Source: Alphaproteobacteria bacterium (GTDB taxonomy: Bacteria; Pseudomonadota; Alphaproteobacteria; Bin95). From it: a stretch of 64,000 bases of DNA. The notes beneath the pieces were generated by a model. The model saw nothing but the letters and a program-made list of their open reading frames with translations, searched no databases and had not been told where the DNA came from. The translations under genes were made by a program, and so were the position numbers. The stretch covers positions 1,978,241-2,042,240 of the forward strand of contig CBDAVA010000003.1 in assembly GCA_965200785.1 (NCBI GenBank), read 5' to 3'. Positions within the stretch are counted from its first letter, which is position 1; each line of letters opens with the position of its first letter. Below, in pieces: positions 14,713 through 62,797 of this stretch.

Positions 14713-14716
14713 CTAG

Positions 14717-17301: not shown

Positions 17302-17313
17302 CCTGCGCCGGCA

Positions 17314-18249: not shown

Positions 18250-18310
18250 CGCCTCGGCAGTGGTCCCTGGAGGGGGAGGCGCAAAGACATTTCCTTGGGG
18301 ATGGCGTTCC

Positions 18311-18616: not shown

Positions 18617-18666
18617 TAGCCGGGCGGGCTAAAACGGCCTGTTTTCAATGCCCTATGGTGAGGGCA
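18617..18666 (+). promoter_or_regulatory. putative CRISPR leader (50 bp between cas2 stop and first repeat)
   Basis: The location fits a leader. The repeats lack an obvious embedded -10 box, unlike Neisseria-type II-C repeats, so a leader promoter is expected. Which end of the array carries the leader was not established from sequence alone. Confidence 0.3.
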
Positions 18667-44475: not shown

Positions 44476-44484
44476 AAATTGCAG

Positions 44485-45582: not shown

Positions 45583-45650
45583 GTGGTTTTCTCCTTCAGA
45601 TTCCACTATCGGTTCTGCAGCGCCCGGCCAGAGGCCGAAGGCGTTGCGGT

Positions 45651-46874: not shown

Positions 46875-47095
46875 CTCGTCTTCGGCGGGCGGCTGACGCA
46901 TCCCGACGGAATCGAGTTCGCCGATCTCGCAGAGCTGGATATCGTCGGCATCTTTCCCAACTACGCCGAGGCCTGCAGGGCCTGGCGGGGCAAGGCGCAG
47001 AGCACGGTGGACGACGCGCATATGCGCTATTTCGTGGTGCATATGCACCGCTTGCTGGACCCCGGAGAGGATGAGCGCAAGGTGGACTGCGGCTG

Positions 47096-48742: not shown

Positions 48743-49110
48743 AGAAACGCGTTCGGTTTCTGGAAGATGCCGAGCATGAGCGCGCCGCCGGGCGAGCGCG
48801 CCTCATGACGGCTGCCGGCGGGCCGCCAGACGAAATCGCCCGCCTTCACTTCGCCGTCGGCGTCCTCGAAGGCGCCTTCCAGCACATAGGTCTGTTCGAT
48901 TGCGGTGTGCTCATGCAAGGGCAGCACGGCGCCCGGCGCCCAGCGGAAGAGGGCGGTCGTCAGACCGCTGGCTTCGTCTTCCAGCAGCACCTTGACCGAG
49001 ACGCCCGGATAAGGCGTGTCGCGCCAGGGCAATGCGCCCACATCGACAATGCGCGATGCGAGCGGCGCCAGATGGTCGTGGGCAGCGGTGTTCGGTGTGC
49101 GCGGGGCCAT
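48739..49110 (-). CDS. cupin-domain protein
   Basis: LPLHEHTAIEQTYVLEGAFED cupin-2 motif; 123 aa. Confidence 0.6.
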   Translation of the reverse strand: MAPRTPNTAAHDHLAPLASRIVDVGALPWRDTPYPGVSVKVLLEDEASGLTTALFRWAPGAVLPLHEHTAIEQTYVLEGAFEDADGEVKAGDFVWRPAGSRHEARSPGGALMLGIFQKPNAFL

Positions 49111-49192
49111 CGCGGAAGCCCTCCTTGAAGCCGGTTGCCTGCTATTCTAGCGTGCGCTGCCGCATGTTCGAGGCGGCGCGGGGGGAACCGGC

Positions 49193-51313
49193 ATGAGTAT
49201 CCGCACTGACACACTTGATGCTTTTTTCAATCCGGAATCAGTGGCGATTGTCGGCGCTTCGTCGAATTTCACCAAGATTGGCGGCCGGCCCGTCCACAAC
49301 ATGAAGATTTCGGGCTATGGCGGCGCGGTGTATCCGGTCAATCCCCGCGCGGCGGAGATCCAGGGCCTGCCGGCGTTCGCCACAATCGGCGACATTCCGG
49401 GGCCGGTCGATATGGCGGTGATCGTCGTGCCGATGCCGCATGTGGAAGCGGCGGTGCAGGCTTGTATCGAAAAGGGCGTGAAGGCCGCGATCGTTCTCTC
49501 CTCCGGCTTCGCGGAAATTTCGGAGCAGGGCGCGCAGGCGCAGCGCCGTCTGGCCGATCTCGGCGCGGAGGGCGGACTGCGGATCATGGGGCCCAATTGC
49601 ATGGGCGTGATGAACACCGGCACCGGCATGATCGCCACCTTCATCTCGGCCATCGGGGACACCGGGCCGGAAACCGGCGCCATTTCCGTCGCGGCGCAAT
49701 CGGGCGCTTTCGGCGGCCACTGCTTTACGCTGGCGCGCGAACGCGGCCTCGGGCTCAATCTCTGGGCGACGATGGGCAACCAGTGCGATGTCGAGTTTTC
49801 GGACTGCCTCGCCTATATGGCGCGCGATCCCGGCACCCGCGTCGTGCTGGGATATATGGAAGGCGTCCAGGACGCGGACAGGCTGGTCGAGGCCCTGGAG
49901 ATCGCCCGCGACGCCGGCAAGCCGGTGGTGCTAATGAAAGTCGGCCGTTCCGAGATCGGAAGCGCGGCGGCGGCCTCCCATACCGCGTCGCTCACCGGCT
50001 CCGACGCCGTGTTCGACGCCCTGTTGCGCCAGCACAATGTCTATCGCCCGCGCAGCATCGACGAGATGTTCGATGTCGGCTACGCCTTCGCCGGCGGGAA
50101 GCTGCCGAAGAGCGGGAAAACCGGCATCATCACGGTCTCCGGCGGGGTGGGCGTCATCATGGCGGACGCGGCCGAGGATGCCGGCCTGGAGCTGCCGGCC
50201 CTGCCGGAAGCGACGCAGCAGAGGATGAAAGATCTGGTGCCGTTCGCCGGCACCCGCAACCCGCTCGACGTGACGGCGCAGTTCATCAATGACGCGACTC
50301 TGATGGACGCGATGTATGGCGCGCTGCTCGATGACGGCGATTATGCGAGCGCCGTGTGTTTCATGGCCGGCGTCGGCCTGAACCCGCTGATGATGGAAGC
50401 GCTGGAGCCGAGCCTGGAGGCGGTCATAGCGCGGTTCCCCGACCATCTGCACATGCTCTCCATCCTGACCACGCCGGAGCGCCGGGCGCGGCTGCAGGCG
50501 ATGGGGTACCTCTGCTATGAAGACCCCAGCCGGGCGATCCATGCACTCGGCGCCTTGGCCCGGTATGCCGCCGCATTGCAGCGCGGGCCGGCAGCGCCGC
50601 CGCCCGAACTGCCTTCGGATGCGCCGAGGCTCGCCGCCGGCGCGGCCATCAACGAAGTGGAAGGCAAGCAAATCCTGGCTGCCGCCGGCGTGCCCGCCGT
50701 GCCGGAAGTGATTGCGGGGTCTGCCGCCGAGGCGGCCGAGGCGGCGGCGGCGGCGGGTTTCCCGGTCGTGATGAAGATCGTCTCCCCCGACATTCTCCAC
50801 AAGTCCGAGATCGGCGGCGTCATGCTCGGCATTGCGACGCGGGAGGCCGCCGAAACCGCCTTTGAGGAGCTGACGGCGCGGGCCGGCGCCCATGCGCCGG
50901 ATGCGCGCATAGACGGTGTTCTCGTTGCGCCCATGGTATCGGGCGGGGTCGAGACCATATTGGGCGTCGTCCGGGACCCGGTGTTCGGCCCGGTGGTGAT
51001 GTTCGGCCTCGGCGGCATCTTCGTGGAGGTGTTGAAGGATGTGACCTTCCGCATCGCGCCGTTCGGCATCGACGAGGCCCGCCGCATGATCCGCGAGGTG
51101 CGGGGCTATCCGATGCTGCAGGGCGTGCGCGGCGCGCCGGCGGCGGATGAGGCGGCGCTTGCCGAGGCGCTGTCGCGCCTCTCGGTGTTCGCCGCCGCCA
51201 ATGCCGATGTGCTGGAGACGATCGACGTCAACCCGTTCATCGTGCTGCCGGAGGGGCAGGGCGCTGTCGCGGTGGATGCGTTAATTGCGGTTCGGGAGAA
51301 AGCGGACGAATGA
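49193..51313 (+). CDS. NDP-forming acyl-CoA synthetase (acetate--CoA ligase [ADP-forming] family), fused alpha/beta
   Basis: An N-terminal CoA-binding and succinyl-CoA-synthetase-like domain with the phospho-His loop, plus a C-terminal ATP-grasp (VVMKIVSPDILHKSEIGGV); 706 aa. Confidence 0.8.
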   Translation: MSIRTDTLDAFFNPESVAIVGASSNFTKIGGRPVHNMKISGYGGAVYPVNPRAAEIQGLPAFATIGDIPGPVDMAVIVVPMPHVEAAVQACIEKGVKAAIVLSSGFAEISEQGAQAQRRLADLGAEGGLRIMGPNCMGVMNTGTGMIATFISAIGDTGPETGAISVAAQSGAFGGHCFTLARERGLGLNLWATMGNQCDVEFSDCLAYMARDPGTRVVLGYMEGVQDADRLVEALEIARDAGKPVVLMKVGRSEIGSAAAASHTASLTGSDAVFDALLRQHNVYRPRSIDEMFDVGYAFAGGKLPKSGKTGIITVSGGVGVIMADAAEDAGLELPALPEATQQRMKDLVPFAGTRNPLDVTAQFINDATLMDAMYGALLDDGDYASAVCFMAGVGLNPLMMEALEPSLEAVIARFPDHLHMLSILTTPERRARLQAMGYLCYEDPSRAIHALGALARYAAALQRGPAAPPPELPSDAPRLAAGAAINEVEGKQILAAAGVPAVPEVIAGSAAEAAEAAAAAGFPVVMKIVSPDILHKSEIGGVMLGIATREAAETAFEELTARAGAHAPDARIDGVLVAPMVSGGVETILGVVRDPVFGPVVMFGLGGIFVEVLKDVTFRIAPFGIDEARRMIREVRGYPMLQGVRGAPAADEAALAEALSRLSVFAAANADVLETIDVNPFIVLPEGQGAVAVDALIAVREKADE

Positions 51314-52488
51314 GCCGCCGGCCGGTCATTGTCGGCGTCGCCGACGCGCCGACGCATAACCGGGGCCGGGCGCTGCCGGGCGCGACGGTGCTGTCCATCC
51401 AGCGCGATGCGGCGGTCGAGGCGCTGACGCAGGCAGGGCTGGCGCTCCGCGATGTGGACGGGCTGGCCGTCGCCGGCATGTGGGGTATGCCGGGGCCGGG
51501 CGCCATGCAGCCGGTTCTGTTGACCGAATATCTGGGCCTCGAATGGCCGCGTTATCTCGACGGCACCAATATCGGCGGCGCGGCCTTCGTGCTTCATGCC
51601 GGCCGGGCCGCGGAGGCGATCCGGTCGGGGCAGGCCGAAACGGTGCTGATCCTCTACGGCTCGCTGCAGAAGAGCCAGGCGGCGCGGGCGCTGGGCGGGC
51701 GGCCCGCCATGTTTTCGAACCAGTGGGACATCCCCGCCGGCCTGCCCCTGCCGGTCGGCGCCTATGCGATGGCCGCGCAGCGCCATGCGCATGTCTATGG
51801 CTCGACGCGGGAGACGCTTGCGGAAATTGCCGCGGCGACCCGCGCCTGGGCGGCGCTCAATCCGGCCGCCGCATTCCGGGAGCCGATGACGGTGGAGGAT
51901 GCGCTGGCCGCGCGCCCGATCGCCTCGCCGCTCGGGCGCTCCGATTGCTGCCTTGTCACCGACGGCGGCGGCGCGGTGGTGATGACCACGGAGGAACGCG
52001 CGCGCGACCTGCCCATGCCGCCGGTTCACCTGCTCGGGCACGGCGCCGCCGCTTCCCATACCAGTATCGCCCACATGCCGGACATGGCGAAGCTGGAGGC
52101 GGCCGAGCACGCCTCGCGCGCCGCATACGCCATGGCGGGGCGCCGGCCTGCCGAAATCGACCTCGCCATGCTGTATGACAGCTTCACGATCACCGTGCTG
52201 ATGACGCTGGAGGCGGTCGGTCTCTGCGGCTATGGCGAGGGCAAGGAGTTCGTCAGGGGCGGGCGGATCGGACCCGGCGGCGCCTTCCCGGTCAACACCA
52301 ATGGCGGCGGGCTGTCCTACTGCCATCCGGGCATGTACGGCCTGTTCACCATGATCGAGGCGGCGCGCCAGCTCTGGGGCATTGCCGGCGACCGGCAGGT
52401 TGCGAATGTCCGGACGGCGCTCTGCCACGGCACGGGCGGCGTCCTGTCGTCCGGCGCAACGGTCATCCTGTCAACCGAAAGGGACTAG
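51310..52488 (+). CDS. thiolase-like protein (SCP-x type)
   Basis: 392 aa thiolase fold. It overlaps the upstream stop and is followed by a DUF35 partner. Confidence 0.75.
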   Translation: MSRRPVIVGVADAPTHNRGRALPGATVLSIQRDAAVEALTQAGLALRDVDGLAVAGMWGMPGPGAMQPVLLTEYLGLEWPRYLDGTNIGGAAFVLHAGRAAEAIRSGQAETVLILYGSLQKSQAARALGGRPAMFSNQWDIPAGLPLPVGAYAMAAQRHAHVYGSTRETLAEIAAATRAWAALNPAAAFREPMTVEDALAARPIASPLGRSDCCLVTDGGGAVVMTTEERARDLPMPPVHLLGHGAAASHTSIAHMPDMAKLEAAEHASRAAYAMAGRRPAEIDLAMLYDSFTITVLMTLEAVGLCGYGEGKEFVRGGRIGPGGAFPVNTNGGGLSYCHPGMYGLFTMIEAARQLWGIAGDRQVANVRTALCHGTGGVLSSGATVILSTERD

Positions 52489-52497
52489 GATCCGGCC

Positions 52498-52905
52498 ATG
52501 AACATGGAGAAGCCGGCGCCTGCCATCGACGCCGAATCGGAACCTTACTGGAGCGGCGCCAGGCAGGGGCGGTTGATGATCCAGCGCTGCGGAAAGACCG
52601 GCCGCTGCTTCCTCTATTCGCGGCGCCTGGCGCCGGGCGTGGATGAGGCGAATATTCAGTGGATTGAGGCGGCGGGAACCGGCACCGTCTATTCCTTCAC
52701 CATATGCCATGCGCCCGCCGGCGCCGCTTTCCGGGACGAGACGCCCTATGCCGTGGCCTGCGTGACGCTGGACGAAGGCGCGCGCATTGTGAGCAATCTC
52801 GTCACCGACGATCTGGATGCCGTCCATATCGGCCAGCGGGTCGAGGTGTTCTTCGACAAGGTTTCCGAAGAGTTGACGATCCCGAAGTTCCGCCCGGCCG
52901 GCTGA
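52498..52905 (+). CDS. DUF35 OB-fold / Zn-ribbon protein
   Basis: PYWSGARQGRLMIQRCGKTGRCFLYSR matches the rubredoxin-like zinc ribbon plus OB fold of DUF35. Confidence 0.7.
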   Translation: MNMEKPAPAIDAESEPYWSGARQGRLMIQRCGKTGRCFLYSRRLAPGVDEANIQWIEAAGTGTVYSFTICHAPAGAAFRDETPYAVACVTLDEGARIVSNLVTDDLDAVHIGQRVEVFFDKVSEELTIPKFRPAG

Positions 52906-52912
52906 AGGCGCC

Positions 52913-53854
52913 GTGCATAAACGCATCTGGCATTATGTCGGCGTGTTCGCCGCGCTTGCGGTGTTCGCCGCCGCTGTCTGGGCGCTGACATGGCAGTTGC
53001 GCGACCTGCGCTGGGACGATCTCGGCCGGCAGCTCGAGGCGATTTCGCTGTTCCGGGTCCTGGCGGCGGTCGCCGCGACCTTCGCCGCCTATCTGGTGCT
53101 GGCGGCCTATGATCTGACGGCGTTCCGCTATATCGGCCGGCGCATGGCCTTCGGCCGGGTCGCCTTCGTCTCCTCGATTTCCTACGCCTTCAGCCACAAT
53201 CTGGGCTTCGGCGCCTTGACGGGCGGCGCGGTGCGTTACCGCTTCTATACGGGCTGGGGCGTGTCCGCCGGCGACATCGCCCGCGTCGTGGTCTATGCTG
53301 GGCTGGTCTATTATCTCTGCGCGCTGTCGGTGGGCGGCGTGCTGATGCTGCCGAACGCGGCGGCGCTGGCGGATGCGCTGGAGTGGCAGCCGCTGGCGGT
53401 CCGGGTTGTTGCGGCCGTCTGGGTTCTGTCGGGCGCGCTCTATGTCGCCTGGTGCGTGCGCGGCAGCCCGGTCGTGCGCATCGGCGCGCGCCGGGTGACG
53501 CCGCCGAAGCTCCGCCACGGCCTGGTCCAGTTCGGCGTCGGGGTCCTCGAATGGGCGTTTGCCAGCGCTGCGCTCTATCTGGTACTGCCGCCGGATTTCG
53601 GCATGTCCTACTGGCATTTCGTCGCCGTTTATGTGCTGGCCTATATGGCGGGTTACATCAGCCATGTGCCCGGCGGTCTGGGCGTGTTCGAGACGGTGCT
53701 GCTGGTGCTGATGCCGGCATCCGTGCCGACCGATGTGGTGGCCGCAGGCATCATCACCTACCGGGCCATCTACTTCCTGCTGCCCCTCTCCCTGGCGCTC
53801 GCGGTTTTCGGCGTCTATGAAGCGCTCCGCGGCCGTTTCGCCCGCGGCCGGTAG
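52913..53854 (+). CDS. lysylphosphatidylglycerol-synthase-TM-region / YbhN (UPF0104) family membrane protein
   Basis: GTG start; 313 aa, about 8 TM helices with family-typical sequence (FRYIGRRMAFGRVAFVSSISYAFSHNLGFGALTGGAVRYRFY). Confidence 0.65.
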   Translation: MHKRIWHYVGVFAALAVFAAAVWALTWQLRDLRWDDLGRQLEAISLFRVLAAVAATFAAYLVLAAYDLTAFRYIGRRMAFGRVAFVSSISYAFSHNLGFGALTGGAVRYRFYTGWGVSAGDIARVVVYAGLVYYLCALSVGGVLMLPNAAALADALEWQPLAVRVVAAVWVLSGALYVAWCVRGSPVVRIGARRVTPPKLRHGLVQFGVGVLEWAFASAALYLVLPPDFGMSYWHFVAVYVLAYMAGYISHVPGGLGVFETVLLVLMPASVPTDVVAAGIITYRAIYFLLPLSLALAVFGVYEALRGRFARGR

Positions 53855-54077
53855 CAGCACCGCCATTGCCGGACACCGGAGCCCATGATAGCCTTCCCAG
53901 ACAAAACCGCCCGGCTTCCGGCCGCATCGCCGTCAAGGTCATCAACCATCTGGGCGACGAGGCGATGACAGTGTTTCGGGTATAGGCAGCGGATCGCGGG
54001 GGCCGTGGTTGCGGGCGGAGCGCCGTCGCGCTATCCATTATTCACTGGCTGCTGACGGGCGGCGGAAGGCCTGACGG

Positions 54078-54491
54078 ATGGAAATCTGGATTACGCCGGC
54101 GCTGGTCGTGGCGCTGGCGGCTCTCATGATCGGCATGATCCGCTCGCTGCGCGGCGATCTGGAAAGGCGCATCGACGGCGTGGACAAGCGCATCGACGAG
54201 GTGCGCAGCGATCTGGGCAAGCGCATCGACAGTGTGGACAAACGGATCGACGGCGTGGACAAGCGTATCGACGAGGTGCGCAGCGACTTGGGCAAACGCA
54301 TCGATGAGGTGCGCAGCGATCTGGGCAAGCGTATCGACAGGGTTGAATACCGGATGGACCGCCTGGAGACCGGCCTGGTCGAGGTGAAGGAAGGGTTGGC
54401 CGAAGTGCGGGGCGAACTCGGGTTCGTCCGCGACTACATCCTGCACCGCAACATGCCGGCGGAGAGGCCGCCGGCCGCACCGGCGGAATAG
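54078..54491 (+). CDS. membrane-anchored coiled-coil repeat protein, paralog 1 (137 aa)
   Basis: It has an N-terminal TM helix (MEIWITPALVVALAALMIGMI), then 7-mer and 11-mer repeats (DKRIDGV / DLGKRIDEVRS), then a conserved tail RVEYRMDRLETGLVEVKEGLAEVRGELGFVRDYILHRNMPAERPPAAPAE. A GAAGG RBS is present. Differences among the four copies are mainly synonymous. Confidence 0.65.
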   Translation: MEIWITPALVVALAALMIGMIRSLRGDLERRIDGVDKRIDEVRSDLGKRIDSVDKRIDGVDKRIDEVRSDLGKRIDEVRSDLGKRIDRVEYRMDRLETGLVEVKEGLAEVRGELGFVRDYILHRNMPAERPPAAPAE

Positions 54492-54712
54492 GCGGCTGCC
54501 GCAAGGGCCGCGCTCAAGAGCGGCGTTTCCCGCCCGTTCCCGCGCCCGGCTTCCGGCCGCATTGCCGTCAAGGTCATCAACCATCTGGGCGACGAGGCGA
54601 TGACAGTGTTTCGGGTATAGGCAGCGGATCGCGGAGGCCGCGGTTGCGGACGGAGCGCTGTCACGCTATCCATTATGCACCGGTGGTTTCCGGGCGGTAG
54701 AAGGCCTGACGG

Positions 54713-55051
54713 ATGGAAATCTGGATTACGCCGGCGCTGATTGTGGCGCTGGCGGCTCTCATGATCGGGATGATCCGCTCGCTGCGCAGCGATCTGGACA
54801 AGCGTATCGACGAGGTGCGCAGCGACCTGGGCAAGCGCATCGACGGTGTGGACAAACGCATCGATGAGGTGCGCAGCGATCTGGGCAAGCGTATCGACAG
54901 GGTCGAATACCGGATGGACCGCTTGGAGACCGGCCTGGTCGAGGTGAAGGAAGGCTTGGCCGAAGTGCGGGGCGAACTCGGGTTCGTCCGCGACTACATC
55001 CTGCACCGCAACATGCCGGCGGAGAGGCCGCCGGCCGCACCGGCGGAATAG
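54713..55051 (+). CDS. membrane-anchored coiled-coil repeat protein, paralog 2 (112 aa)
   Basis: Same architecture with fewer internal repeats (3 units) and an identical C-terminal 57 aa. Confidence 0.65.
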   Translation: MEIWITPALIVALAALMIGMIRSLRSDLDKRIDEVRSDLGKRIDGVDKRIDEVRSDLGKRIDRVEYRMDRLETGLVEVKEGLAEVRGELGFVRDYILHRNMPAERPPAAPAE

Positions 55052-55272
55052 GCGGCTGCCGCAAGGGCCGCGCTCAAGAGCGGCGTTTCCCGCCCGTTCC
55101 CGCGCCCGGCTTCCGGCCGCATTGCCGTCAAGGTCGTTAACCATCTGGGCGACGAGGCGATGACAGTGTTTCGGGTGTAGGCAGCGGGTCGCGGGGGCCG
55201 CGGTTGCGGGCGGAGCGCTGTCGCGCTATCCATTATTCACTGGCTGCTGACGGGCGGTAGAAGGCCTGACGG

Positions 55273-55623
55273 ATGGAAATCTGGATTACGCCGGCGCTGA
55301 TCGTGGCGCTGGCGGCTCTCATGATCGGCATGATCCGGTCGCTGCGCAGCGACCTGGACAAGCGTATCGACGAGGTGCGCAGCGACTTGGGCAAGCGCAT
55401 CGATGAGGTGCGCAGCGATCTGGGCAAGCGCATCGATGAGGTGCGCAGCGATCTGGGCAAGCGCATCGACAGGGTGGAATACCGGATGGACCGCCTGGAG
55501 ACCGGCCTGGTCGAGGTGAAGGAAGGCTTGGCCGAAGTGCGGGGCGAACTCGGGTTCGTCCGCGACTACATCCTGCACCGCAACATGCCGGCGGAGAGGC
55601 CGCCGGCCGCGCCGGCGGAATAG
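55273..55623 (+). CDS. membrane-anchored coiled-coil repeat protein, paralog 3 (116 aa)
   Basis: Same architecture, with three consecutive DLGKRIDEVRS 11-mers. Confidence 0.65.
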   Translation: MEIWITPALIVALAALMIGMIRSLRSDLDKRIDEVRSDLGKRIDEVRSDLGKRIDEVRSDLGKRIDRVEYRMDRLETGLVEVKEGLAEVRGELGFVRDYILHRNMPAERPPAAPAE

Positions 55624-55844
55624 GCGGCTGCCGCAAGGGCCGCGCTCAAGAGCGGCGTTTCCCGCCCGTTCCCGCGCCCGGTTTCCGGCCGCATCGCCGT
55701 CAAGGTCATCAACCATCTGGGCGACGAGGCGATGACAGTGTTTCGGGTATAGGCAGCGGATCGCGGGGGTCGTGGTTGCGGGCGGAGCACCGTCGCGCTA
55801 TCCATCATTCACTGGCAGCTGACGGGCGGTAGAAGGCCTGACGG

Positions 55845-56300
55845 ATGGAAATCTGGATTACGCCGGCGCTGATCGTGGCGCTGGCGGCTCTCATGATCGG
55901 GATGATCCGCTCGCTGCGCGGCGATCTGGAGAGGCGTATCGACGGCGTGGACAAGCGCATCGATGGTGTGGACAAACGCATCGACGAGGTGCGCAGCGAC
56001 TTGGGCAAGCGCATCGACAGTGTGGACAAACGCATCGACGGTGTGGACAAGCGTATCGACGAGGTGCGCAGCGACTTGGGCAAGCGTATCGACAGTGTGG
56101 ACAGACGCATCGATGAGGTGCGCAGCGATCTGGGCAAGCGTATCGACAGGGTCGAACACCGGATGGACCGCCTGGAGACCGGCTTGGTCGAGGTGAAGGA
56201 AGGCTTGGCCGAAGTGCGGGGCGAACTCGGGTTCGTCCGCGATTACATCCTGCACCGCAACATGCCGGCGGAGAGGCCGCCGGCCGCACCGGCGGAATAA
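55845..56300 (+). CDS. membrane-anchored coiled-coil repeat protein, paralog 4 (151 aa)
   Basis: Same architecture with the most repeat units. It has a Y-to-H change in the tail (RVEHRM) and a different downstream hairpin (GCTGCCGCC ggg GCGGCGGCAG). Confidence 0.65.
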   Translation: MEIWITPALIVALAALMIGMIRSLRGDLERRIDGVDKRIDGVDKRIDEVRSDLGKRIDSVDKRIDGVDKRIDEVRSDLGKRIDSVDRRIDEVRSDLGKRIDRVEHRMDRLETGLVEVKEGLAEVRGELGFVRDYILHRNMPAERPPAAPAE

Positions 56301-56410
56301 GCGGCTGCCGCCGGGGCGGCGGCAGTCGATAGCGGGAAGCCGCGGTTGCAGGACGGTCCGGTTCACACTATCCACTAGTCAAGATCCACCCAGCCACCGG
56401 ACCCTGCCTC

Positions 56411-57592
56411 ATGGACCTTAATTTCGCTGCTGAAGACGAAGCCTTCCGCGCCGAATGCCGCGCGTTCCTCGCCGACAAGCTGCCGCGGGATGTGGCGCGC
56501 AAGGTCGGGCTTGGCATCCAGCCGACGCTGGCGGAAGTCATGGCCTGGCACCGCGCGCTTCACGAGCAGGGCTGGATTGCGCCCAATTGGCCGAGCGAGT
56601 GGGGCGGCCCCGACTGGACGGTGACACAGAAATATATCTGGGACGAGGAACAGGCGCTCGCCAATGCGCCGCGCCCCATTCCGTTCGGCATTTCCATGTG
56701 CGGCCCCGTGCTGCTGGCCTTTGGCTCCGACAGGCAGAAGCAGCTGCACTTGCCGCGCATCCTTTCCGGCGAGCACATCTTCTGTCAGGGATATTCGGAG
56801 CCGGGCGCCGGCTCCGACCTCGCCTCGCTCAAGACCCGCTGCGAGGTCCATGACGACCATTTCGTCATCAACGGCCAGAAGATCTGGACCACCTCGGCCC
56901 ATCACGCGAACTGGATTTTCTGCCTTGTGCGGACCTCCAGCGCCGGGAAGCGGCAGGAAGGCATCTCCTTCGTTCTGATCGACATGAAGACGCCCGGCAT
57001 CGAGGTGAAACCGCTGATTACCCTCGAGGGCCTGCATGAGGTGAACGAGGTCTTCTTCACTGATGTCGTCGTGCCGAGGGAAAACCTGGTGGGCGAGATT
57101 GACCAGGGCTGGACGATCGCCAAATACCTGCTCGGCCATGAGCGCATGGGCGGCGGCGCGCTGGGCGCCCAGAAAACCGGGCTGCGCTCTCTCAAGGAGA
57201 TCGCAGCGGACCAGGGCCTCGACAGCGACGGGACCTTCATGCGCAAGGTCTCGGAGGTTGAAATCGAACTCCAGACGCTGGAGATGCAGATGCTCCGTAT
57301 GCTGGCCGCCGTCTCGGCGGACAGGGAAATCGGCGCCGAGGCCTCGATGATCAAGATCAGGCGGACCGAAATCCAGCAGCGCCTCTCCGAACTCAAGATG
57401 GAAGCGGCGGGATATGACGCGGCGCCCTACCAGCTCGAGGCGATGGAGCACGGCTGGAACGAGGAGCCGGTCGGGCCGGACTACGCCAATGCGCTGGCGG
57501 CGAAATATTTCAACGACCGCAAGCACACGATCTTTGCGGGCTCCAACGAGATACAGCGGAACATCATCGCCAAGCGGATGCTGGGCCTTTGA
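56411..57592 (+). CDS. acyl-CoA dehydrogenase family protein
   Basis: 393 aa with N-terminal alpha, middle beta-barrel (GSDLASLKTRCE..., FCQGYSEPGAGSDL) and C-terminal ACAD domains. Confidence 0.8.
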   Translation: MDLNFAAEDEAFRAECRAFLADKLPRDVARKVGLGIQPTLAEVMAWHRALHEQGWIAPNWPSEWGGPDWTVTQKYIWDEEQALANAPRPIPFGISMCGPVLLAFGSDRQKQLHLPRILSGEHIFCQGYSEPGAGSDLASLKTRCEVHDDHFVINGQKIWTTSAHHANWIFCLVRTSSAGKRQEGISFVLIDMKTPGIEVKPLITLEGLHEVNEVFFTDVVVPRENLVGEIDQGWTIAKYLLGHERMGGGALGAQKTGLRSLKEIAADQGLDSDGTFMRKVSEVEIELQTLEMQMLRMLAAVSADREIGAEASMIKIRRTEIQQRLSELKMEAAGYDAAPYQLEAMEHGWNEEPVGPDYANALAAKYFNDRKHTIFAGSNEIQRNIIAKRMLGL

Positions 57593-58587
57593 ACCGGCCC
57601 AATCTCGACCTCGAACGGTTGGGGGACCGGCATCGGCGGATGCACCGCATCCGCGCCTTCGAGGAGCAGGCCGTCGCTGCGCTGAAGGAAGGGCTGGTGC
57701 TCGGGGCCATCCATCCGTCCATCGGCCAGGAAGCCTGCGCCGTCGGGGTTGTCGGCAGCCTGGCGCGGGAGGACCTGCTGCTCTCCACCCACCGCGGCCA
57801 CGGCCATACGCTGGAAAAGGGGGCGTCCGCCGCGGCCATGATGCGCGAACTGTTCGGGCGCGAGGGCGGTAATTGCGGCGGCAAGGGCGGCTCCATGCAC
57901 ATTGCCGACTTTTCGGTCGGGATGCTGGGCGCGAACGGCGTCGTGGGCGCGAATATCTCTATTGCCGCCGGCGCCGCCCATGCGGTCCGGCTGCGCGGCG
58001 AGCGGCGGATCGTCTGCTGTATCTTCGGCGACGGCGCGGTCAATCGAGGCCCGTTCCTCGAAGGATTGAACTGGGCGCGGGTCTTCGACCTGCCGGTGCT
58101 GTTCGTCTGCGAGGACAACGCCTTCGCCGCAACGACGAGGACCGAGGCGATGACCGGCGGTCCGGGGCCGGGCGCGCGCGCGGAGGCGCTCGGCATCCCC
58201 GCCTGGACAGTGGACGGCAATGATGTCGACAGCGTGGCGGAGGCGGCGGCCGCGCTTCGCGACCGCATCCTCCGGGGCGGCGGCCCGCAATTCCTCTGGG
58301 CGAAGACCTGGCGCCTGACGGGCCACACGGCCGTGGATCTGGCCGCCTATCGCGACGCCGGGGAAACGGCGGAACGCTGGAAGGACGATCCCATCGCCCG
58401 CGCGGCCGGGATATTGCAGGCGCACGGCGTTGCCGGGGAAACACTCCGCGGCCACCAGGAGGCGGCTGTTGCGGAGATGCGGGCGGCCTTCGAGGAGGCG
58501 AAGGCCGCGCCCTGGCCGGACGAGGCCGCGCTTTATGCCGATGTGCAGGACACGGGCGATCCGCGCGAGGCGGCGTTCCGATGGTGA
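57589..58587 (+). CDS. TPP-dependent 2-oxoacid dehydrogenase E1 component, alpha subunit (PDH/acetoin-DH type)
   Basis: The motifs HRGHGH, GGKGGSMHI and GDGAVNRG are the TPP-binding motif of E1-alpha. Confidence 0.8.
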   Translation: MNRPNLDLERLGDRHRRMHRIRAFEEQAVAALKEGLVLGAIHPSIGQEACAVGVVGSLAREDLLLSTHRGHGHTLEKGASAAAMMRELFGREGGNCGGKGGSMHIADFSVGMLGANGVVGANISIAAGAAHAVRLRGERRIVCCIFGDGAVNRGPFLEGLNWARVFDLPVLFVCEDNAFAATTRTEAMTGGPGPGARAEALGIPAWTVDGNDVDSVAEAAAALRDRILRGGGPQFLWAKTWRLTGHTAVDLAAYRDAGETAERWKDDPIARAAGILQAHGVAGETLRGHQEAAVAEMRAAFEEAKAAPWPDEAALYADVQDTGDPREAAFRW

Positions 58588-59549
58588 AAACCACCTATCT
58601 GGAGGCCGGCCGGCGCGCGCTGGCCGAGGAGATGCGCCGCGACCCGACGGTCTGGGCAGTCGGCGAGGATCTCGGGCGGGGCGGGGTTTTCGGACAATAT
58701 GCCGGCATGGTGGAGGAGTTCGGGCCGCTCAGGATTTCCGATGCGCCGATCTCCGAAGCCGCAATCCTCGGGGCGGCCGTCGGCGCGGCGATGGCGGGGA
58801 CGCGCCCGGTGGTGGAGATGCGCTTCGCGGATTTCGCGCTGTGCGCCGTTGACGAGCTGGTGAATCAGGCGGCCAAGGCCCGGTATATGTTCGGCGGCCA
58901 GGGCGGTGTGCCGCTGGTCGTCCGCGAGCCGATGGGCATGTGGCGCTCCTCCGCGGCGCAGCACTCGCAGTCGCTCGAGGCCTGGTATGTCCATATCCCG
59001 GGCCTGACCGTGGTGACGCCGGCGACGCCGAAGGACAACCTGCGTCTGCTCAAGGCGGCGATCCGCAGCAGCGATCCGGTCGTCTATATGGAGCACAAGG
59101 ATCTCTGGGGGCTGGAGGAGGACCTTGCCGATGACGAGCCGCCGGCCGCGCTTGGCAGCGCGCGCATTGTCTGCGAAGGCGGCGATACGACGGCGGTGTC
59201 CTGGTCGGCGGCGGTCCATACCGTTCGCGCGGCCGCCCTGGAACTGGCGAAAGAGGGCGTATCGCTGGAAGTCATCGACCTGCGCACCTTATGGCCGTGG
59301 GACCGCGATACCGTGCTGGCCTCGGTGCGCAAGACCGGGCGGCTGGTGGTGGCGCATGAGGCGGTCTCGGTCGGCGGTTTCGGGGCCGAGATCGCTGCGG
59401 TCGTCTCCGAGGCCCTGTTCGGCAGCTTGAAGGCGCCGGTGAGGCGCCTGGGCGCGCCGCGCGTCCCGATTCCCTATGCGAAACCGCTGGAGGACATGTT
59501 GCGTGTTGACGCCGCCGCCATTGCGGCTGCCGTTCGCGCGCAGCTATAG
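58581..59549 (+). CDS. 2-oxoacid dehydrogenase E1 component, beta subunit
   Basis: Transketolase-like pyrimidine-binding domain (ISDAPISEAAILGAAVGAAMAG) plus a C-terminal domain; 322 aa. No E2 gene follows. Confidence 0.8.
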   Translation: MVKTTYLEAGRRALAEEMRRDPTVWAVGEDLGRGGVFGQYAGMVEEFGPLRISDAPISEAAILGAAVGAAMAGTRPVVEMRFADFALCAVDELVNQAAKARYMFGGQGGVPLVVREPMGMWRSSAAQHSQSLEAWYVHIPGLTVVTPATPKDNLRLLKAAIRSSDPVVYMEHKDLWGLEEDLADDEPPAALGSARIVCEGGDTTAVSWSAAVHTVRAAALELAKEGVSLEVIDLRTLWPWDRDTVLASVRKTGRLVVAHEAVSVGGFGAEIAAVVSEALFGSLKAPVRRLGAPRVPIPYAKPLEDMLRVDAAAIAAAVRAQL

Positions 59550-59576
59550 GCCGCCGCCCGGAAAGGAGGTGGAACG

Positions 59577-60086
59577 ATGACCGATTGGCAAGAGGATCTG
59601 TACCGGGTCCTGAAGGAATTTCGTGTCAGCCAGGTGAGCTATGTGCCCGATGCCGGCCACCGGGTGCTGATCGACAAGTCGCTTGCAGACCCCGAGATGC
59701 ACTCCGTGCCGCTGACTACCGAGGAAGAAGGTATTGCGATGCTCGCCGGTGCCCATCTCGGCGGCGCGCGCGGCGTTGCGGCCATGCAGTCCTCCGGCAT
59801 CGGCAATTGCGTCAACATGTTCTCGCTGGTGAAGAACGGGCTGTTCCCGATGCTGGTTCTAGTGTCGATGCGCGGCGATTTCGGCGAGGGCAATCCCTGG
59901 CAGATGCCGATGGGCCAGGCGGTGGAGCCGGTGATGGAGGCGATGGGTTTCATCACCATGCGGATCGACCGGCCCGAAGATGTGGAAGGCGGGATGCGGG
60001 CGGCGTGCACGATGGTTTTCCAGTCGGGCCAGGCGGTCGGCGTTCTTCTGACCCAGAAGCTGATCGGCGCCAAGGTGTTCGGATGA
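59577..60086 (+). CDS. sulfopyruvate/phosphonopyruvate-decarboxylase-like TPP enzyme, alpha (ComD-like) subunit
   Basis: 169 aa covering only the Pyr domain (VPLTTEEEGIAMLAGAHLGG...SGIGNCVN). It is paired with a beta subunit immediately downstream. Confidence 0.6.
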   Translation: MTDWQEDLYRVLKEFRVSQVSYVPDAGHRVLIDKSLADPEMHSVPLTTEEEGIAMLAGAHLGGARGVAAMQSSGIGNCVNMFSLVKNGLFPMLVLVSMRGDFGEGNPWQMPMGQAVEPVMEAMGFITMRIDRPEDVEGGMRAACTMVFQSGQAVGVLLTQKLIGAKVFG

Positions 60087-60099
60087 AGGAGGCGAGGCG

Positions 60100-60726
60100 A
60101 TGAGTGCGGCATTTCAGGCCGGAACCGCGGCCGGGATGAGTCCTGTCGGCACGCTCGACAGGCGCGAGGCGGTGCCGGCGCTGGTCGGGAATTCGCAGGA
60201 TTGGCTGATCGTCGCCGGGCTGGCCGGCACGGCGAAGGACACCGCGGCGATGTGCGAGCCGGAAGCCAACTATTTCGCCTGCGCCGGCGTCATGGGTGGC
60301 GCAGTCGCCATGGGGCTCGGTCTTGCGCTTGCCCGGCCGGACCGCCGGGTGCTGGTGCTCACAGGCGACGGCGAACTGCTGATGAATGTCGGGTCGCTGG
60401 CGACAGTAGCGATCCTGAATCCTCCCAATCTCTCCATCGTGTGCGTCGATAACGGGCATTACGGCGAGACGGGCTATCAGAAGAGCCACACCTCTCTCGG
60501 CGTGGACCTGGCGTCGATGGCGTCCGGCGCCGGAATTCCGGCGGTTCGCACGGTGGTTGCAGCCGGTGAGATCGATGAAGCGGGGCGGCTGATCCGGGAG
60601 GCCAACGGATCGTCGTTCGTGCTGTTGAAGATCACACCCGATGCGCCGCCGCCAGTCGTCAGGCGCTCGCTCGATGCCGCCTTGTCCAAGGACAGGTTCC
60701 GCGCCGCAACCCTGCCCGCCGGATAG
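60100..60726 (+). CDS. sulfopyruvate/phosphonopyruvate-decarboxylase-like TPP enzyme, beta (ComE-like) subunit
   Basis: TPP-binding PP domain (LTGDGELLMNVGSLATV...NGHYGETGYQ); 208 aa. Confidence 0.6.
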   Translation: MSAAFQAGTAAGMSPVGTLDRREAVPALVGNSQDWLIVAGLAGTAKDTAAMCEPEANYFACAGVMGGAVAMGLGLALARPDRRVLVLTGDGELLMNVGSLATVAILNPPNLSIVCVDNGHYGETGYQKSHTSLGVDLASMASGAGIPAVRTVVAAGEIDEAGRLIREANGSSFVLLKITPDAPPPVVRRSLDAALSKDRFRAATLPAG

Positions 60727-60739
60727 CCGCCTCGGGACA

Positions 60740-62797
60740 TTACGGATCGCGGGCGGAGCCGCCGCCCGTGAGGATTTTCGGGCGGAAGGGGTAGAGCGCG
60801 CCGTCGGAGCCGATGCCGGGAATCGGGCGCACCGGCGCGCCGTCATGCGCGGCCTCCATGAAGTCGCGCCAGATGCGGGCGGGCAGGCTGCCGCCTGTGA
60901 CCTCCTCCATCGGCGCGCCGTCGTCATTGCCGACCCACACGCCGGCGACCAGATTGCCGGTAAAGCCGACAAAGAGGGCGTCGCGGAAGGACTGGCTGGT
61001 GCCGGTCTTGCCTGCCGAGGCGCGGTCCTGCAGGCGGGCGGCCTTGCCGGTGCCCTGCCTGACGACGGCGGCCAGCATATCGTTCATGGACGCCACGACG
61101 CCGGGGGCCACAGCTTCGCCGGCGCCGGTGCCGGACCGCTCGAACACGCCTTCGATCCTGTTGACGCCATAGGGAATGACGCCGATGCCGCCATTCGCGA
61201 AGGCGGCGTAGGCGCCGGTTAACTCGATCAGCCGCACCGCGCTGGAGCCGAGCGCAATGGTGAGGTCGGGCGCGAGGTCGGATGTGATCCCGAGACGCCG
61301 TGCCGCCTCGGCGACCCGCGCCCGCCCGGCGCGGTCGGCAAGCCGCACCGCGGCGGCGTTCAGGGATTGCGCAAAGGCGTCCCGCATCGTGACCGAGCCG
61401 TGGAAGCGGCCGTCGAAATTATCCGGCGACCATCCGCCTATCGTGACGCGCCTGTCCGATACCGTGTCGTCCGGGCGCAAGCCCCGCTCCAGCGCCGCCA
61501 GATAAACAAACGGCTTGAAGGCCGAACCCGGCTGACGGAGAGCCTGTGTCGCGCGGTTGAACTGGCTGGCGCCGTAGTCCCTGCCGCCGATCATGGCCCG
61601 CACGGCGCCGTCGGGAGACATGGCAATGAGCGCCGCCTGGGCCGGGTTCCCGATGTCGGCGAGCGCGGCAGCAACAGTTTCCGCCGCGAGTCTCTGCAGG
61701 CCCGGATCGAAGGTTGTCGCGATACGCAGGTCCCGGTCCACCGATCCCATGCGCCGATGCACCTGCGCGAGCGCCCAGTCGGCGAAATAGCCGCGCCCGT
61801 CCGGCTCCGTCCTGGTCTGCAAGGTGGATGCCGCCGCCGCTTCGGCTTCTTGGGCGGAGATGAAACCGACCTCCGCCATTGCCTCCAGCACCAGCCGCCC
61901 CCGCTCGCCGGCGCCGGCCGGGTTGGCCACCGGAGACAGCCGGCTCGGCGCCTTCAACAACCCGGCCAGCACTGCGGCTTCCCAAAGATCGACCTCCGCG
62001 GCCGGTTTGGAAAAGAAGCGCCGCGCAGCCGCATCAACACCATAGGCGCCGGAGCCGAAATAGACGCGGTTGAGGTAGAGCGACAGGATATGATTCTTGT
62101 CGTAACGCCATTCCAACCAGAATGCGAGCAAGGCCTCGCGAATCTTCCGCTCGACCGATCGTTCCGGCGTCAGGAAAAGGTTCTTGGCGAGCTGCTGGGT
62201 AATCGTGCTGCCGCCCTGGCGCAGCCCTCCCTCGACGACATTGACCCAAAGGGCGCGAACCAGGCTGATCAGGTCGATACCATCATGGTCGTAGAAGCGC
62301 CGGTCCTCGATCGCGATGACTGCGCGGGGAAGATGAGGGGGAAGCGTTGCCGCATTCACCGGGTCGCCATACAGGTCGCCCTTCGCCAGCACCGGATTGT
62401 TGTCAACATCGTTGAGAAAGATGCCCGGACGCCGCCCGCTTTCCGCCACCCGGTCGATATCGGGCAATGTGTAGGAAAAATAGGCCAGCGCCCCGATAAC
62501 GGCGATCAGGGCCCAGACGCAGACGACTGCCAGGCCGAGCAGGCAGCGCCGCAGGAAAGACCGCCGCGCGCCGGCTGCGGAGGCAGACCGCTTCCGCTTG
62601 GGGGCCGGGCGCCCGGCCTTCCGCGCCGGCGGTGTCTTTGGGGGGGCTTTCTTTTGAAGTTTTCGCTCAGGCGAACGCCGTGCTTGCGAGGCCGGTTCCG
62701 GCTTGCCGGCTGCGCCGGCGCGCAGCCGCGGCATGCCCCGCCGCCGTCCGGCGGCCCCGCCGCCCCGTTTTTCGCCTCCGCGCGCCATCGCCGTCAT
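60740..62797 (-). CDS. class A penicillin-binding protein (PBP1A family; glycosyltransferase + transpeptidase)
   Basis: GT51 motifs (EDRRFYDHDGID, GGSTITQQLAKN, RKIREA) and a transpeptidase domain (SxxK, KTGT). It has a basic Ala/Lys/Arg/Pro-rich N-terminal extension; the true start is probably MPRLRAG or later. Confidence 0.8.
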   Translation of the reverse strand: MTAMARGGEKRGGGAAGRRRGMPRLRAGAAGKPEPASQARRSPERKLQKKAPPKTPPARKAGRPAPKRKRSASAAGARRSFLRRCLLGLAVVCVWALIAVIGALAYFSYTLPDIDRVAESGRRPGIFLNDVDNNPVLAKGDLYGDPVNAATLPPHLPRAVIAIEDRRFYDHDGIDLISLVRALWVNVVEGGLRQGGSTITQQLAKNLFLTPERSVERKIREALLAFWLEWRYDKNHILSLYLNRVYFGSGAYGVDAAARRFFSKPAAEVDLWEAAVLAGLLKAPSRLSPVANPAGAGERGRLVLEAMAEVGFISAQEAEAAAASTLQTRTEPDGRGYFADWALAQVHRRMGSVDRDLRIATTFDPGLQRLAAETVAAALADIGNPAQAALIAMSPDGAVRAMIGGRDYGASQFNRATQALRQPGSAFKPFVYLAALERGLRPDDTVSDRRVTIGGWSPDNFDGRFHGSVTMRDAFAQSLNAAAVRLADRAGRARVAEAARRLGITSDLAPDLTIALGSSAVRLIELTGAYAAFANGGIGVIPYGVNRIEGVFERSGTGAGEAVAPGVVASMNDMLAAVVRQGTGKAARLQDRASAGKTGTSQSFRDALFVGFTGNLVAGVWVGNDDGAPMEEVTGGSLPARIWRDFMEAAHDGAPVRPIPGIGSDGALYPFRPKILTGGGSARDP

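Follow-up and report, generated by a model that had tools for sequence, protein, structure and literature searches.

In the window, by which we mean the whole stretch of 64,000 nucleotides analysed here, four consecutive genes lie in tandem on the forward strand (Table 1) and encode proteins of one design, in which an N-terminal transmembrane (TM) helix is followed by a string of 7- and 11-residue modules and then by a conserved tail of about 50 residues. All four share the N-terminus MEIWITPAL[VI]VALAALMIGMIRSLR, in which the best 19-residue Kyte-Doolittle window (residues 3-21, mean 2.4) is the sole hydrophobic segment of the protein, and the heads vary between copies at V/I10 and G/S26. As their first pseudo-module, genes 1 and 4 have GDLERRID and genes 2 and 3 have SDLDKRID; each copy has 3-8 modules, either [GS]VD[KR]RID (7 residues) or EVRSDLGKRID (11 residues), and protein length equals 83 + 7a + 11b in 35/35 close relatives. 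The shared C-terminus, RVE[YH]RMDRLETGLVEVKEGLAEVRGELGFVRDYILHRNMPAERPPAAPAE, spans 50 residues, or 53 when counted from RID, with a Y-to-H exchange in gene 4. A sequence-only reading of this DNA had described four co-oriented genes for proteins of 112-151 residues with an N-terminal TM helix and variable modules, all of which holds, while its invariant tail of 57 residues has to be shortened accordingly and, given the exchange in gene 4, is not invariant in the strict sense.

The repeat units, measured from start codon to start codon, are 635, 560 and 572 bp long from gene 1 to gene 4. The three internal spacers of 221 bp are 92-95% identical to one another in an alignment, and in the flank upstream of gene 1 the spacer homology begins at about 53909 (alignment column 53) and continues at 91-96% identity over 169 columns. 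The earlier proposals that whole units with some 220 bp of upstream DNA were tandemly duplicated, and that recombination has operated both within and between genes, are upheld. Within the locus, TRF (minimum score 30) reported periods all within 12-129 nt, and the periods that follow the protein modules (21, 33, 54, 75 and 129 nt) are all divisible by 3, with imperfect repeats (65-92% matches), the 33-bp repeat of gene 3 attaining 3.9 copies with 92% matches. TRF found no mono- to tetranucleotide or frame-shifting tract in the genes and spacers. The array is neighboured in the window by LPG_synthase_TM, thiolase-like and acyl-CoA dehydrogenase (ACAD) genes, a block that is syntenic with another genome locus, L001.

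Table 1. Features of the four-gene array, in window coordinates.
Feature	Position	Strand	Description
Upstream unit of copy 1	53909-54077	+	part homologous to the internal spacers (alignment)
Promoter-like 30-nt motif, copy 1	54008-54037	+	GTTGCGG...TCGCGCTATCCA (TTGCGG-N17-TATCCA); regex scan
RBS-like GAAGG of gene 1	54065-54069	+	
Gene 1 (g1)	54078-54491	+	137 aa; modules 7-11-7-7-11-11; conserved tail
TM helix of gene 1	54084-54140	+	residues 3-21
Module region of gene 1	54177-54338	+	54 aa, six modules; TRF periods 21/33/54
Spacer with upstream unit, copy 2	54492-54712	+	221 bp; promoter-like motif 54643-54672
Gene 2 (g2)	54713-55051	+	112 aa; modules 11-7-11 at 54812-54898
Spacer with upstream unit, copy 3	55052-55272	+	221 bp; promoter-like motif 55203-55232
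Gene 3 (g3)	55273-55623	+	116 aa; modules 11-11-11 at 55372-55470
Spacer with upstream unit, copy 4	55624-55844	+	221 bp; promoter-like motif 55775-55804
Gene 4 (g4)	55845-56300	+	151 aa; modules 7-7-11-7-7-11-7-11 at 55944-56147; tail Y to H
Promoter-like motif, fifth copy, 3′ of gene 4	56345-56374	+	36 nt upstream of the ACAD start at 56411; regex scan

Coding evidence and upstream elements

Over the 83 non-module codons, the paralogues differ by 7-11 nucleotides, with dS of 0.07-0.12 and dN of 0-0.022, which gives dN/dS ratios of 0-0.32. The GC3 of the forward frame is 0.83-0.88, as against 0.85 in the neighbouring genes and about 0.70 in the antisense ORFs of 126-236 aa that overlap every copy, and a GAAGG stands 8 nt 5′ of each ATG in all four copies. 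Since both the low dN/dS and the GC3 point to a coding forward frame, the sequence comparison indicates that the four genes are genuine and under purifying selection. The sequence-only reading had argued the same from GTT/GTC, CTG/TTG and GGG/GGC exchanges in the tail, and these examples are indeed synonymous. Because the copies have diverged to a dS of about 0.1, the array is no transient amplification.

The 30-nt motif has a predicted promoter function. In about 630 kb of sequence, comprising the window and the genome loci, every occurrence lies upstream of either a family gene or the ACAD gene, and in the syntenic L001 the motif likewise precedes the ACAD gene (L001 10395-10424); the fifth copy in the window could be either a solo remnant of a repeat unit or a shared promoter. 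A scan for sigma-70 and terminator consensus returned 0 sites, and the motif had 0 matches in the JGI metagenomes. In two relatives (L003 and L032) the motif is enclosed by an inverted repeat that is not conserved in the window. Rfam searches gave no match, either at the locus or across the window as a whole, and the RNA fold of the copy-2 spacer is ordinary (z = -0.47).

An unnamed family with variable length and copy number

A full-length profile (A2), which includes the TM helix and the tail, recovered the four window ORFs in hmmsearch at E = 4e-45 to 2e-63. A search of other genomes with the conserved tail, which the sequence-only reading had suggested, was made with a tail-only profile (A4) and retrieved at least 539 clusters (at 90% identity), nearly all of them from metagenome-assembled genomes (MAGs) of uncultured Alphaproteobacteria; the best 120 of the 539 clusters are all proteins of 69-118 aa, and 0 of them are named. 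In a library of 50% representatives, 187 matches fell below 1e-10. Gene 2 had 41 homologues, and 31 genome loci were collected. The MAG names lead us to suspect a marine sponge symbiont habitat.

Copy number and length vary between lineages. L001 is 83-86% identical at the nucleotide level over window positions 44147-62530 and has one copy at the array site where the window has four, and L037 has 1 copy where the syntenic L041 has 3 and 1 degenerate. Independent arrays exist elsewhere, with 4 copies in L015 and 2 in L017, in addition to that of L041, which adjoins an integrase. Neither clustering of the neighbours of the 31 loci nor five Pfam context look-ups yielded a conserved gene partner, the neighbours being varied metabolic genes. 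Among those encountered were SDRs, a hydantoinase and glycosyltransferases, together with an RM methylase in 3 loci and RTX-like proteins in 4 related loci. Neither this sizeable unnamed family, with its recurring length polymorphism and amplification, nor the resemblance of its modules to those of Borrelia Bdr/KID-type proteins, described below, had figured in the sequence-only reading.

Comparison with known protein families

No model in Pfam, NCBIfam, PHROGs or PADLOC places the proteins, which bears out the earlier statement that they belong to no named domain; the sub-threshold matches are coiled-coil noise and disappear in module-free members. Three candidates were rejected. XhlA-type proteins (PF10779) are likewise small, with one TM helix and a heptad/hendecad coiled coil, but their TM helix is C-terminal, at the opposite end as the sequence-only reading had pointed out, and the window array lacks a lysis-cassette context; the window proteins score 13-21 bits against a cut-off of 34.7. 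DUF1664 (PF07889), a family of plant membrane coiled-coil proteins, shares with the window only the score of gene 4 above the gathering threshold of 34.6, and its scores (17.6 bits for the one-module relative P0009, then 19.5, 24.5, 31.4 and 41.2 bits for genes 3, 2, 1 and 4) climb with module number and reflect coiled-coil composition instead of homology. Apolipoprotein A1/A4/E (PF01442) gives at best 29.9 bits, for gene 3, against a gathering score of 90. Near-identical modules, DEVKSDLGKRI and DETNKRI, occur in the C-anchored RID-repeat proteins P0037 (Vibrio artabrorum) and P0029.

F-ATPase subunit b, YhcB/DUF1043, PspB and DUF948/YtxH are N-anchored inner-membrane coiled coils that have a short N-out tail, one TM helix, a long oligomerising cytoplasmic helix and a C-terminal binding region, and subunit b has a hendecad periodicity in a right-handed coiled coil. 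No relation of the window proteins to any of these exceeded the curated Pfam and NCBIfam thresholds, and we know of no modular length polymorphism or tandem paralogue array in any of them.

The repeat region is, at the level of sequence comparison, specifically and significantly similar to that of the Bdr KID-repeat proteins of Borrelia. A tblastn search with gene 4 against 72,556 plasmids matched 85 records, of which 83 are from Borrelia or Borreliella, and the 25 matches listed, all Borrelia/Borreliella, coincide with genes that are bdr or bdr-like, the lowest E being 3e-10; in pairwise BLASTP against the Bdr of B31 cp32-9, E reached 1e-17. As controls, gene 3, which has hendecads only, matched Borrelia in 18/19 records, and P0010, a module-free family member, had no plasmid matches. 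The Bdr modules KIDGLDT (7 residues) and KIDSVKSELNA or KIDNVEKNLNL (11 residues) correspond to RIDGVDK and RIDEVRSDLGK here, and both groups are small, single-TM, membrane-anchored proteins with multi-copy paralogues that differ in repeat number. However, the anchor is C-terminal in Bdr, where the chain ends in a hydrophobic segment (...WVLGIMGAMSITMIAGLIFAFISK), and N-terminal in the window proteins, which begin directly with the TM helix, lack the Bdr N-domain and have as their conserved domain a C-terminal tip with a -PAE tail. The NCBIfam model Bdr_N_group1 (NF040499) scores 94 bits on the B31 Bdr and is absent from the complete lists for genes 2 and 3 at E<=1. The core is KID in Bdr and RID in the window proteins, which Pfam KID (PF02524) leaves unscored (absent from the complete lists for the same genes at E<=10); this model also misses a B. 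hermsii Bdr-like protein. Bdr genes are dispersed on Borrelia plasmids and cp32 prophages, whereas those of the window family are chromosomal and tandem in uncultured Alphaproteobacteria. The repeat number of bdrT differs between strains, about 9 versus 6 (PMC3303823), and the Bdr proteins show an inner-membrane association, their function being still unknown (PMC10016077). The similarity could have arisen through convergence of short repeats instead of common descent.

Structure and topology

Structure prediction, also suggested by the sequence-only reading, gave an AlphaFold2 model of the gene 2 protein with one continuous helix from residue 5 to 99, residues 100-112 unstructured, and a mean pLDDT of 83; Foldseek returned 0 matches, as is expected for a single-helix model. 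A PDB sequence search retrieved generic coiled coils and no specific structure, and trimeric coiled coils (spike HR, reovirus sigma-1, HA2 and trimeric autotransporters) make up most of the closest matches, which hints at a trimer. We assume, further, that RIDRVE and RMDRLE match the R-h-x-x-h-E trimerisation motif, and that both core positions are beta-branched, in line with a trimer.

Lysine and arginine are absent before the TM helix in 36/36 family proteins examined, and 2-5 follow it, with 3-5 in the 15 residues after the helix in the window copies and their close relatives. By the positive-inside rule, which is the sole basis of this assignment, the predicted topology is N-out/C-in, so that the stalk would be cytoplasmic and not at the surface. 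The family proteins have no basic n-region of a signal peptide, lipobox, Cys or sorting motif that we could find. A surface location, as advanced in the sequence-only reading, is thus disfavoured by the charge pattern, and its phase-variable or contingency locus is unsupported because there is no frame-shifting repeat; the modules are imperfect 21- and 33-bp in-frame units.

Discussion

Based on these findings, we hold it somewhat more probable than its alternatives combined that the array belongs to a Bdr-like family of N-anchored cytoplasmic coiled-coil stalks, whose length and copy number are altered by unequal recombination. Each protein would be a bitopic inner-membrane protein made of a single long alpha-helix, with an acidic N-terminus of 2 residues outside and an N-terminal TM anchor, and the remainder would reach into the cytoplasm as a stalk, a parallel and probably homotrimeric coiled coil. 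The heptad xVDKRID and the hendecad EVRSDLGKRID would be interchangeable stalk modules that maintain one continuous, 3/4-spaced hydrophobic seam, and the stalk would terminate at a conserved tip of five heptads (RVExRMDRLE...AEV.G.L.FV..YIL.RN), beyond which a flexible Pro/Ala/Glu tail runs to the final -PAE. At 1.5 A per residue, module number could set stalk length, estimated for the four copies at about 12, 12, 15.5 and 17.5 nm as against about 7 nm in module-free relatives, and the array would therefore display one and the same tip at a number of set distances from the membrane; both the oligomeric state and a spacer or scaffold role are what we infer for the stalk. Unequal homologous recombination between the 21/33-bp modules would change length, always in frame, and recombination between the 560-635 bp units would change copy number.

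Recurrent amplification together with length variation, however, is seen more typically in exposed proteins that face diversifying pressure than in cytoplasmic scaffolds, which speaks against the cytoplasmic stalk. An N-in/C-out, extracytoplasmic stalk, an Lpp-like or adhesin-stalk-like spacer diversified in contingency fashion under external pressure, could explain why both tandem amplification and in-frame changes of repeat number are found recurrently, in four lineages, and trimeric autotransporter stalks and viral fusion proteins are among the top coiled-coil matches in PDB and NCBIfam. Yet the charge distribution around the TM helix in all members, the lack of export or sorting signals and of a frame-shifting simple repeat, a tail under purifying and not diversifying selection, and a paralogue dS that denotes long-term retention all oppose it, and we regard it as unlikely. 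An equally tentative proposal goes beyond the cytoplasmic stalk itself, namely that the family is the N-anchored counterpart of Bdr within a broad, so far unrecognised [KR]ID-repeat superfamily of homotrimeric cytoplasmic "distance rulers", their length being genetically adjustable in steps of 1.0 nm per heptad and 1.65 nm per hendecad, in which the array would offer graded lengths for placing a partner of the tip or of the -PAE tail.

We give still less credit to an apolipoprotein-, LEA- or YtxH-like amphipathic protein, the 11-mers of which would rest flat against the cytoplasmic leaflet, stabilising or remodelling the membrane under stress. The 11-residue periodicity, the weak Pfam Apolipoprotein matches, the label "apolipoprotein A1/A4/E family protein" that PGAP attaches to several Bdr-like Borrelia genes, and the N-terminal-anchor architecture, which we take to resemble DUF948/YtxH-type general stress proteins, fit such a protein. 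But the hydrophobic face is narrow, 3/11 or 2/7 positions with charges on both sides, as in a coiled-coil core, the Apolipoprotein scores are far under the cut-off, and the conserved tip consists of canonical heptads. A prophage remnant encoding a small membrane protein for lysis (XhlA-, spanin- or holin-accessory-like) is very improbable and largely refuted: the weak PHROG matches to "hemolysin" and "Rz-like spanin", the position of bdr on cp32-9 downstream of the blyA/blyB holin genes and the integrase beside the L041 array are outweighed by the absence of any relative in 2.9 million viral contigs, 1 weak match in 50,697 phage genomes, the vanishing of the PHROG matches for P0010, and the syntenic metabolic neighbourhood. 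That the array is selfish or neutral tandem DNA merely left open, or that the long antisense ORFs over every copy are the true genes, is already refuted by the forward-frame dN/dS and GC3 and by the maintenance of the forward-frame protein across hundreds of clusters in several phyla.

In conclusion, the cytoplasmic stalk that we favour does not represent a new type of system. This work defines an unannotated family of hundreds of sequence clusters, whose members all go under the label "hypothetical"; the family has no Pfam or NCBIfam model and obeys an unusually clean length rule, and its genes have undergone repeated tandem amplification and in-frame changes of length. It also supplies structural work with a naturally occurring series of coiled coils that mix heptads and hendecads. 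The sequence link to the Bdr/KID-repeat proteins of the Lyme and relapsing-fever spirochetes, the function of which has been unknown for 25 years, brings in another, independent lineage that shares the repeat grammar but has the membrane polarity reversed, and thus a comparative handle on the function of the rod; if the distance-ruler proposal were true, work on the window family could give the Borrelia Bdr proteins a function.

The four tandem genes and their coding status

Exactly as the sequence-only reading had described, four co-oriented ORFs, g1-g4, lie on the + strand (table below). Each encodes a protein that begins with MEIWITPAL[VI]VALAALMIGMIRSLR, continues through a pseudo-module (GDLERRID in g1 and g4, SDLDKRID in g2 and g3) and 3-8 modules of exactly 7 ([GS]VD[KR]RID) or 11 residues (EVRSDLGKRID), and ends with RVE[YH]RMDRLETGLVEVKEGLAEVRGELGFVRDYILHRNMPAERPPAAPAE. 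The tail, described earlier as 57 invariant residues, is indeed conserved, but it measures 50-53 aa and carries a single Y-to-H change, in g4. Internal spacers, three in number and 221 bp each, share 92-95% identity, and homology to them begins at ~53909 in the flank upstream of the first copy. A 5.8-billion-cluster protein collection contains none of the four proteins as such; since the best match is only 85% identical, the source genome is seemingly unrepresented there.

Across the 83 non-module codons, the paralogues differ by 7-11 nucleotides (dS 0.07-0.12, dN 0-0.022, ratio 0-0.32). GC3 in the forward frame is 0.83-0.88, like that of the flanking genes (0.85), and the long antisense ORFs over g1-g4 have a GC3 of ~0.70 and a GC1 of ~0.8; GAAGG stands 8 nt upstream of all four ATGs. 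The dN/dS ratio, GC3 and GAAGG at each start uphold the earlier view of real genes under purifying selection. The spacers are slightly more diverged between copies than the coding cores, and therefore the copies, with a dS of ~0.1, are old enough for retention under purifying selection; judged from this divergence, the four-copy array is not a transient amplification.

Features of the window and of related loci
Feature	Sequence	Position	Strand	Description
g1	window	54078-54491	+	137 aa; modules 7-11-7-7-11-11
g2	window	54713-55051	+	112 aa; modules 11-7-11
g3	window	55273-55623	+	116 aa; modules 11-11-11
g4	window	55845-56300	+	151 aa; modules 7-7-11-7-7-11-7-11
30-nt motif, fifth copy	window	56345-56374		upstream of acyl-CoA dehydrogenase gene
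30-nt motif	L001	10395-10424		upstream of acyl-CoA dehydrogenase gene
Region collinear with L001	window	44147-62530		nucleotide identity 83-86%
DDE transposase ORF	window	13095-14537		DDE_Tnp_1_4, 500 bits
Compact type II CRISPR-Cas locus	window	14338-19903		
Cas9-like ORF	window	14338-17301		domains RuvC_III, HNH_4, Cas9_a
Cas1	window	17314-18249		
CRISPR array	window	18666-19903		19 copies of 36-nt repeat AGTGTAGCAAATCGAGAAGCGGCCGCAATCCGCAGC, period 66 nt
Duplication in CRISPR array	window	near 19524-19890		198 bp
Inverted repeat	L003	9908-9986		motif in loop
Inverted repeat	L032	5908-6000		motif in loop
Array	L015			four copies, 91-109 aa; spacers 105 bp
Array	L017			two copies
Array	L041			three intact copies (94, 101, 123 aa) and degenerate fourth adjoining integrase
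Decayed copy	L041	6226-6453		
Decayed copy	L008	9977-10189		
Decayed copy	L024	6415-6579		
Decayed copy	L031	2322-2483		
Decayed copy	P0021			

Family membership and likeness to Borrelia Bdr proteins

No curated model of Pfam, NCBIfam, PHROGs or PADLOC places the proteins, in agreement with the earlier statement that they belong to no named domain; apart from DUF1664 for g4, matches were sub-threshold and to coiled coils. DUF1664 (41.2 bits, cut-off 34.6) was rejected, as its score tracks module number and is 17.6 bits in a one-module relative. The proteins do have relatives, in a sizeable unnamed family with repeats of the Bdr (Borrelia direct repeat)/KID type. With g2 as query, 41 homologues were found; there were 31 family loci in one-genome-per-species contigs, 187 matches below 1e-10 in a 50%-representative library, and 539 clusters at 90% identity with a tail-only profile, the best 120 of which are all 69-118 aa and 'hypothetical' or without a name.

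Family members share an acidic N-terminus of 1-6 residues, a single TM helix, a variable repeat region, and a C-terminal part L[RG].VE.G.AE[VI].G.L.F[VI]..YIL.RN followed by a Pro/Ala/Glu tail with terminal -PAE. In the close ME.WITPAL subfamily, all 35 lengths equal 83 + 7a + 11b, from 83 aa (zero modules) to 160 aa. Nearly all hosts are MAGs of uncultured Alphaproteobacteria, Thalassobaculaceae and Defluviicoccus among them, with outliers among Dehalococcoidia and Longimicrobiales MAGs. Members in unrelated phyla are found in MAGs of Dehalococcoidia (L028; L030, 215 aa with hendecads MDEQKADL[ST][RK][QH]), Longimicrobiales (L027) and Thermoanaerobaculia (L019, at a contig end, tail 83% identical), a distribution that points to horizontal transfer among inhabitants of a common habitat or, for L019, to binning contamination.

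When g4 was searched by tblastn against all 72,556 PLSDB plasmids, 85 records matched, 83 of them from Borrelia or Borreliella, and the 25 matches listed, all from these genera, fall within genes that are bdr or bdr-like. The lowest E value was 3e-10, with 31-42% identity across 54-75% of the query. In a pairwise BLASTP comparison with the Bdr of B31 cp32-9, E was 1e-17. The Bdr heptads (KIDGLDT) and hendecads (KIDSVKSELNA / KIDNVEKNLNL) match, position by position, RIDGVDK and RIDEVRSDLGK of the window proteins. As controls, the module-free relative P0010 had no plasmid match, and hendecad-only g3 matched Borrelia in 18 of 19 plasmid records; phage genomes gave one weak match. However, Bdr proteins are anchored at the C-terminus and possess a dedicated N-terminal domain (Bdr_N, NF040499, 94 bits), and the window proteins have neither feature. 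The narrow Pfam KID model (PF02524) scores neither the window proteins nor a B. hermsii Bdr-like protein. The unnamed proteins P0029 and P0037, the latter from Vibrio, carry the same modules (DEVKSDLGKRI / DETNKRI) together with a C-terminal anchor. Many architectures contain the generic heptad repeat D.R[FIL]DG[VI], which is very widespread. According to reviews, Bdr proteins associate with the inner membrane and are of unknown function (PMC10016077), and bdr repeat number varies among strains (PMC3303823).

Copy-number and length dynamics

At the same site in the syntenic locus L001 (OY730441.1) stands one 115-aa gene, flanked by LPG_synthase_TM-like and acyl-CoA dehydrogenase genes, and therefore the four-copy state is lineage-specific. 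The arrays at L015, L017 and L041 are independent of that in the window, and L037, syntenic with L041, has one copy (126 aa). Near-identical orthologues differ by single modules (for instance 149 aa in L004 vs 160 aa in L005, or P0018, 112 aa, vs P0020, 119 aa). Such arrays and length differences agree with the earlier proposal of recombination and, at the level of sequence comparison, support recurrent unequal recombination at two scales. On/off phase variation, also suggested earlier, finds no backing, since every length change is in frame and TRF found no short frame-shifting tract.

Among the decayed copies, the fourth copy beside an integrase is frameshifted, another is truncated at its N-terminus, two retain only the tail, and one is a gene call joining a nucleotidyltransferase domain to a family tail.

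Gene context and upstream motif

Neighbouring genes vary by locus and are mostly metabolic, and no conserved partner gene occurs in the neighbourhoods examined; the family gene stands alone as a unit. In the window, L001, L003 and L032-L036, every family gene has, 34-41 nt upstream, a 30-nt motif, GTTGCRG...TCRCRYTATCCA, which can be read as TTGCRG-N17-TATCCA. Another copy, the fifth in the window, precedes the acyl-CoA dehydrogenase gene, as one also does in L001. Beyond these, no copy was found in the ~630 kb examined, nor further copies in JGI metagenomes, and a consensus sigma-70 scan was negative. As a plausible promoter, the motif may allow independent transcription of each gene copy. 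With the copy before the acyl-CoA dehydrogenase gene, direct motif copies bracket the family gene or array; that copy may be a repeat-unit remnant standing alone, or a promoter/operator that is shared.

In the hydantoinase-linked orthologues L003 and L032, the motif occupies the loop of an imperfect inverted repeat of 29-33 nt (core GGTGGATAGTG...CACTATCCACC) that extends to the start codon; L001 has a degraded form of this palindrome, and the window lacks it.

Elsewhere in the window, the CRISPR array has two consecutive spacers each present twice through an internal duplication, and the DDE transposase ORF shares ~200 nt with the Cas9-like ORF at the annotated 5′ end of the latter, perhaps because an IS has inserted at or into the 5′ region of cas9 or the tracrRNA area.

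Topology and a proposed stalk

AlphaFold2 with the family alignment modelled g2 as an uninterrupted helix over residues 5-99, with residues 100-112 unstructured (mean pLDDT 83), and Foldseek returned no match for this lone helix. The hydrophobic positions (L24, L28, I32, V35, L39, I43, V46 ... V92, I96) keep a 3/4 spacing throughout, and therefore heptads and hendecads form one continuous seam; the conserved tail reads as five canonical heptads. Since 18 residues (7 + 11) complete five helical turns of 3.6 residues each, supercoiling should nearly cancel where modules are mixed. PDB sequence matches are mostly trimeric coiled coils. RIDRVE and RMDRLE presumably fit the trimerisation motif R-h-x-x-h-E, and both core positions are beta-branched, which we take as a trimer hint.

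None of the 36 family proteins examined has Lys/Arg before the TM helix, and 2-5 follow within 15 residues (3-5 in the window copies and close relatives); by the positive-inside rule, the stalk would therefore be cytoplasmic (N-out/C-in). This charge pattern, together with the lack of a signal-peptide n-region and of a lipobox in family proteins, speaks against the surface location suggested earlier. We lean slightly towards a mechanism in which each protein would act as a cytoplasmic, probably trimeric, length-tunable stalk presenting a conserved tip, with predicted lengths of ~11.7, 12.3, 15.5 and 17.6 nm in the four copies, at 1.5 Å per residue, and ~7.4 nm in module-free relatives.

Taken from their sequences, g1-g4 are predicted membrane-anchored, repeat-number-variable [KR]ID coiled-coil proteins with a repeat region of the Bdr/KID type, and they are set apart from known [KR]ID coiled-coil proteins by the N-terminal anchor, a new conserved C-terminal tip and the tandem chromosomal arrays.
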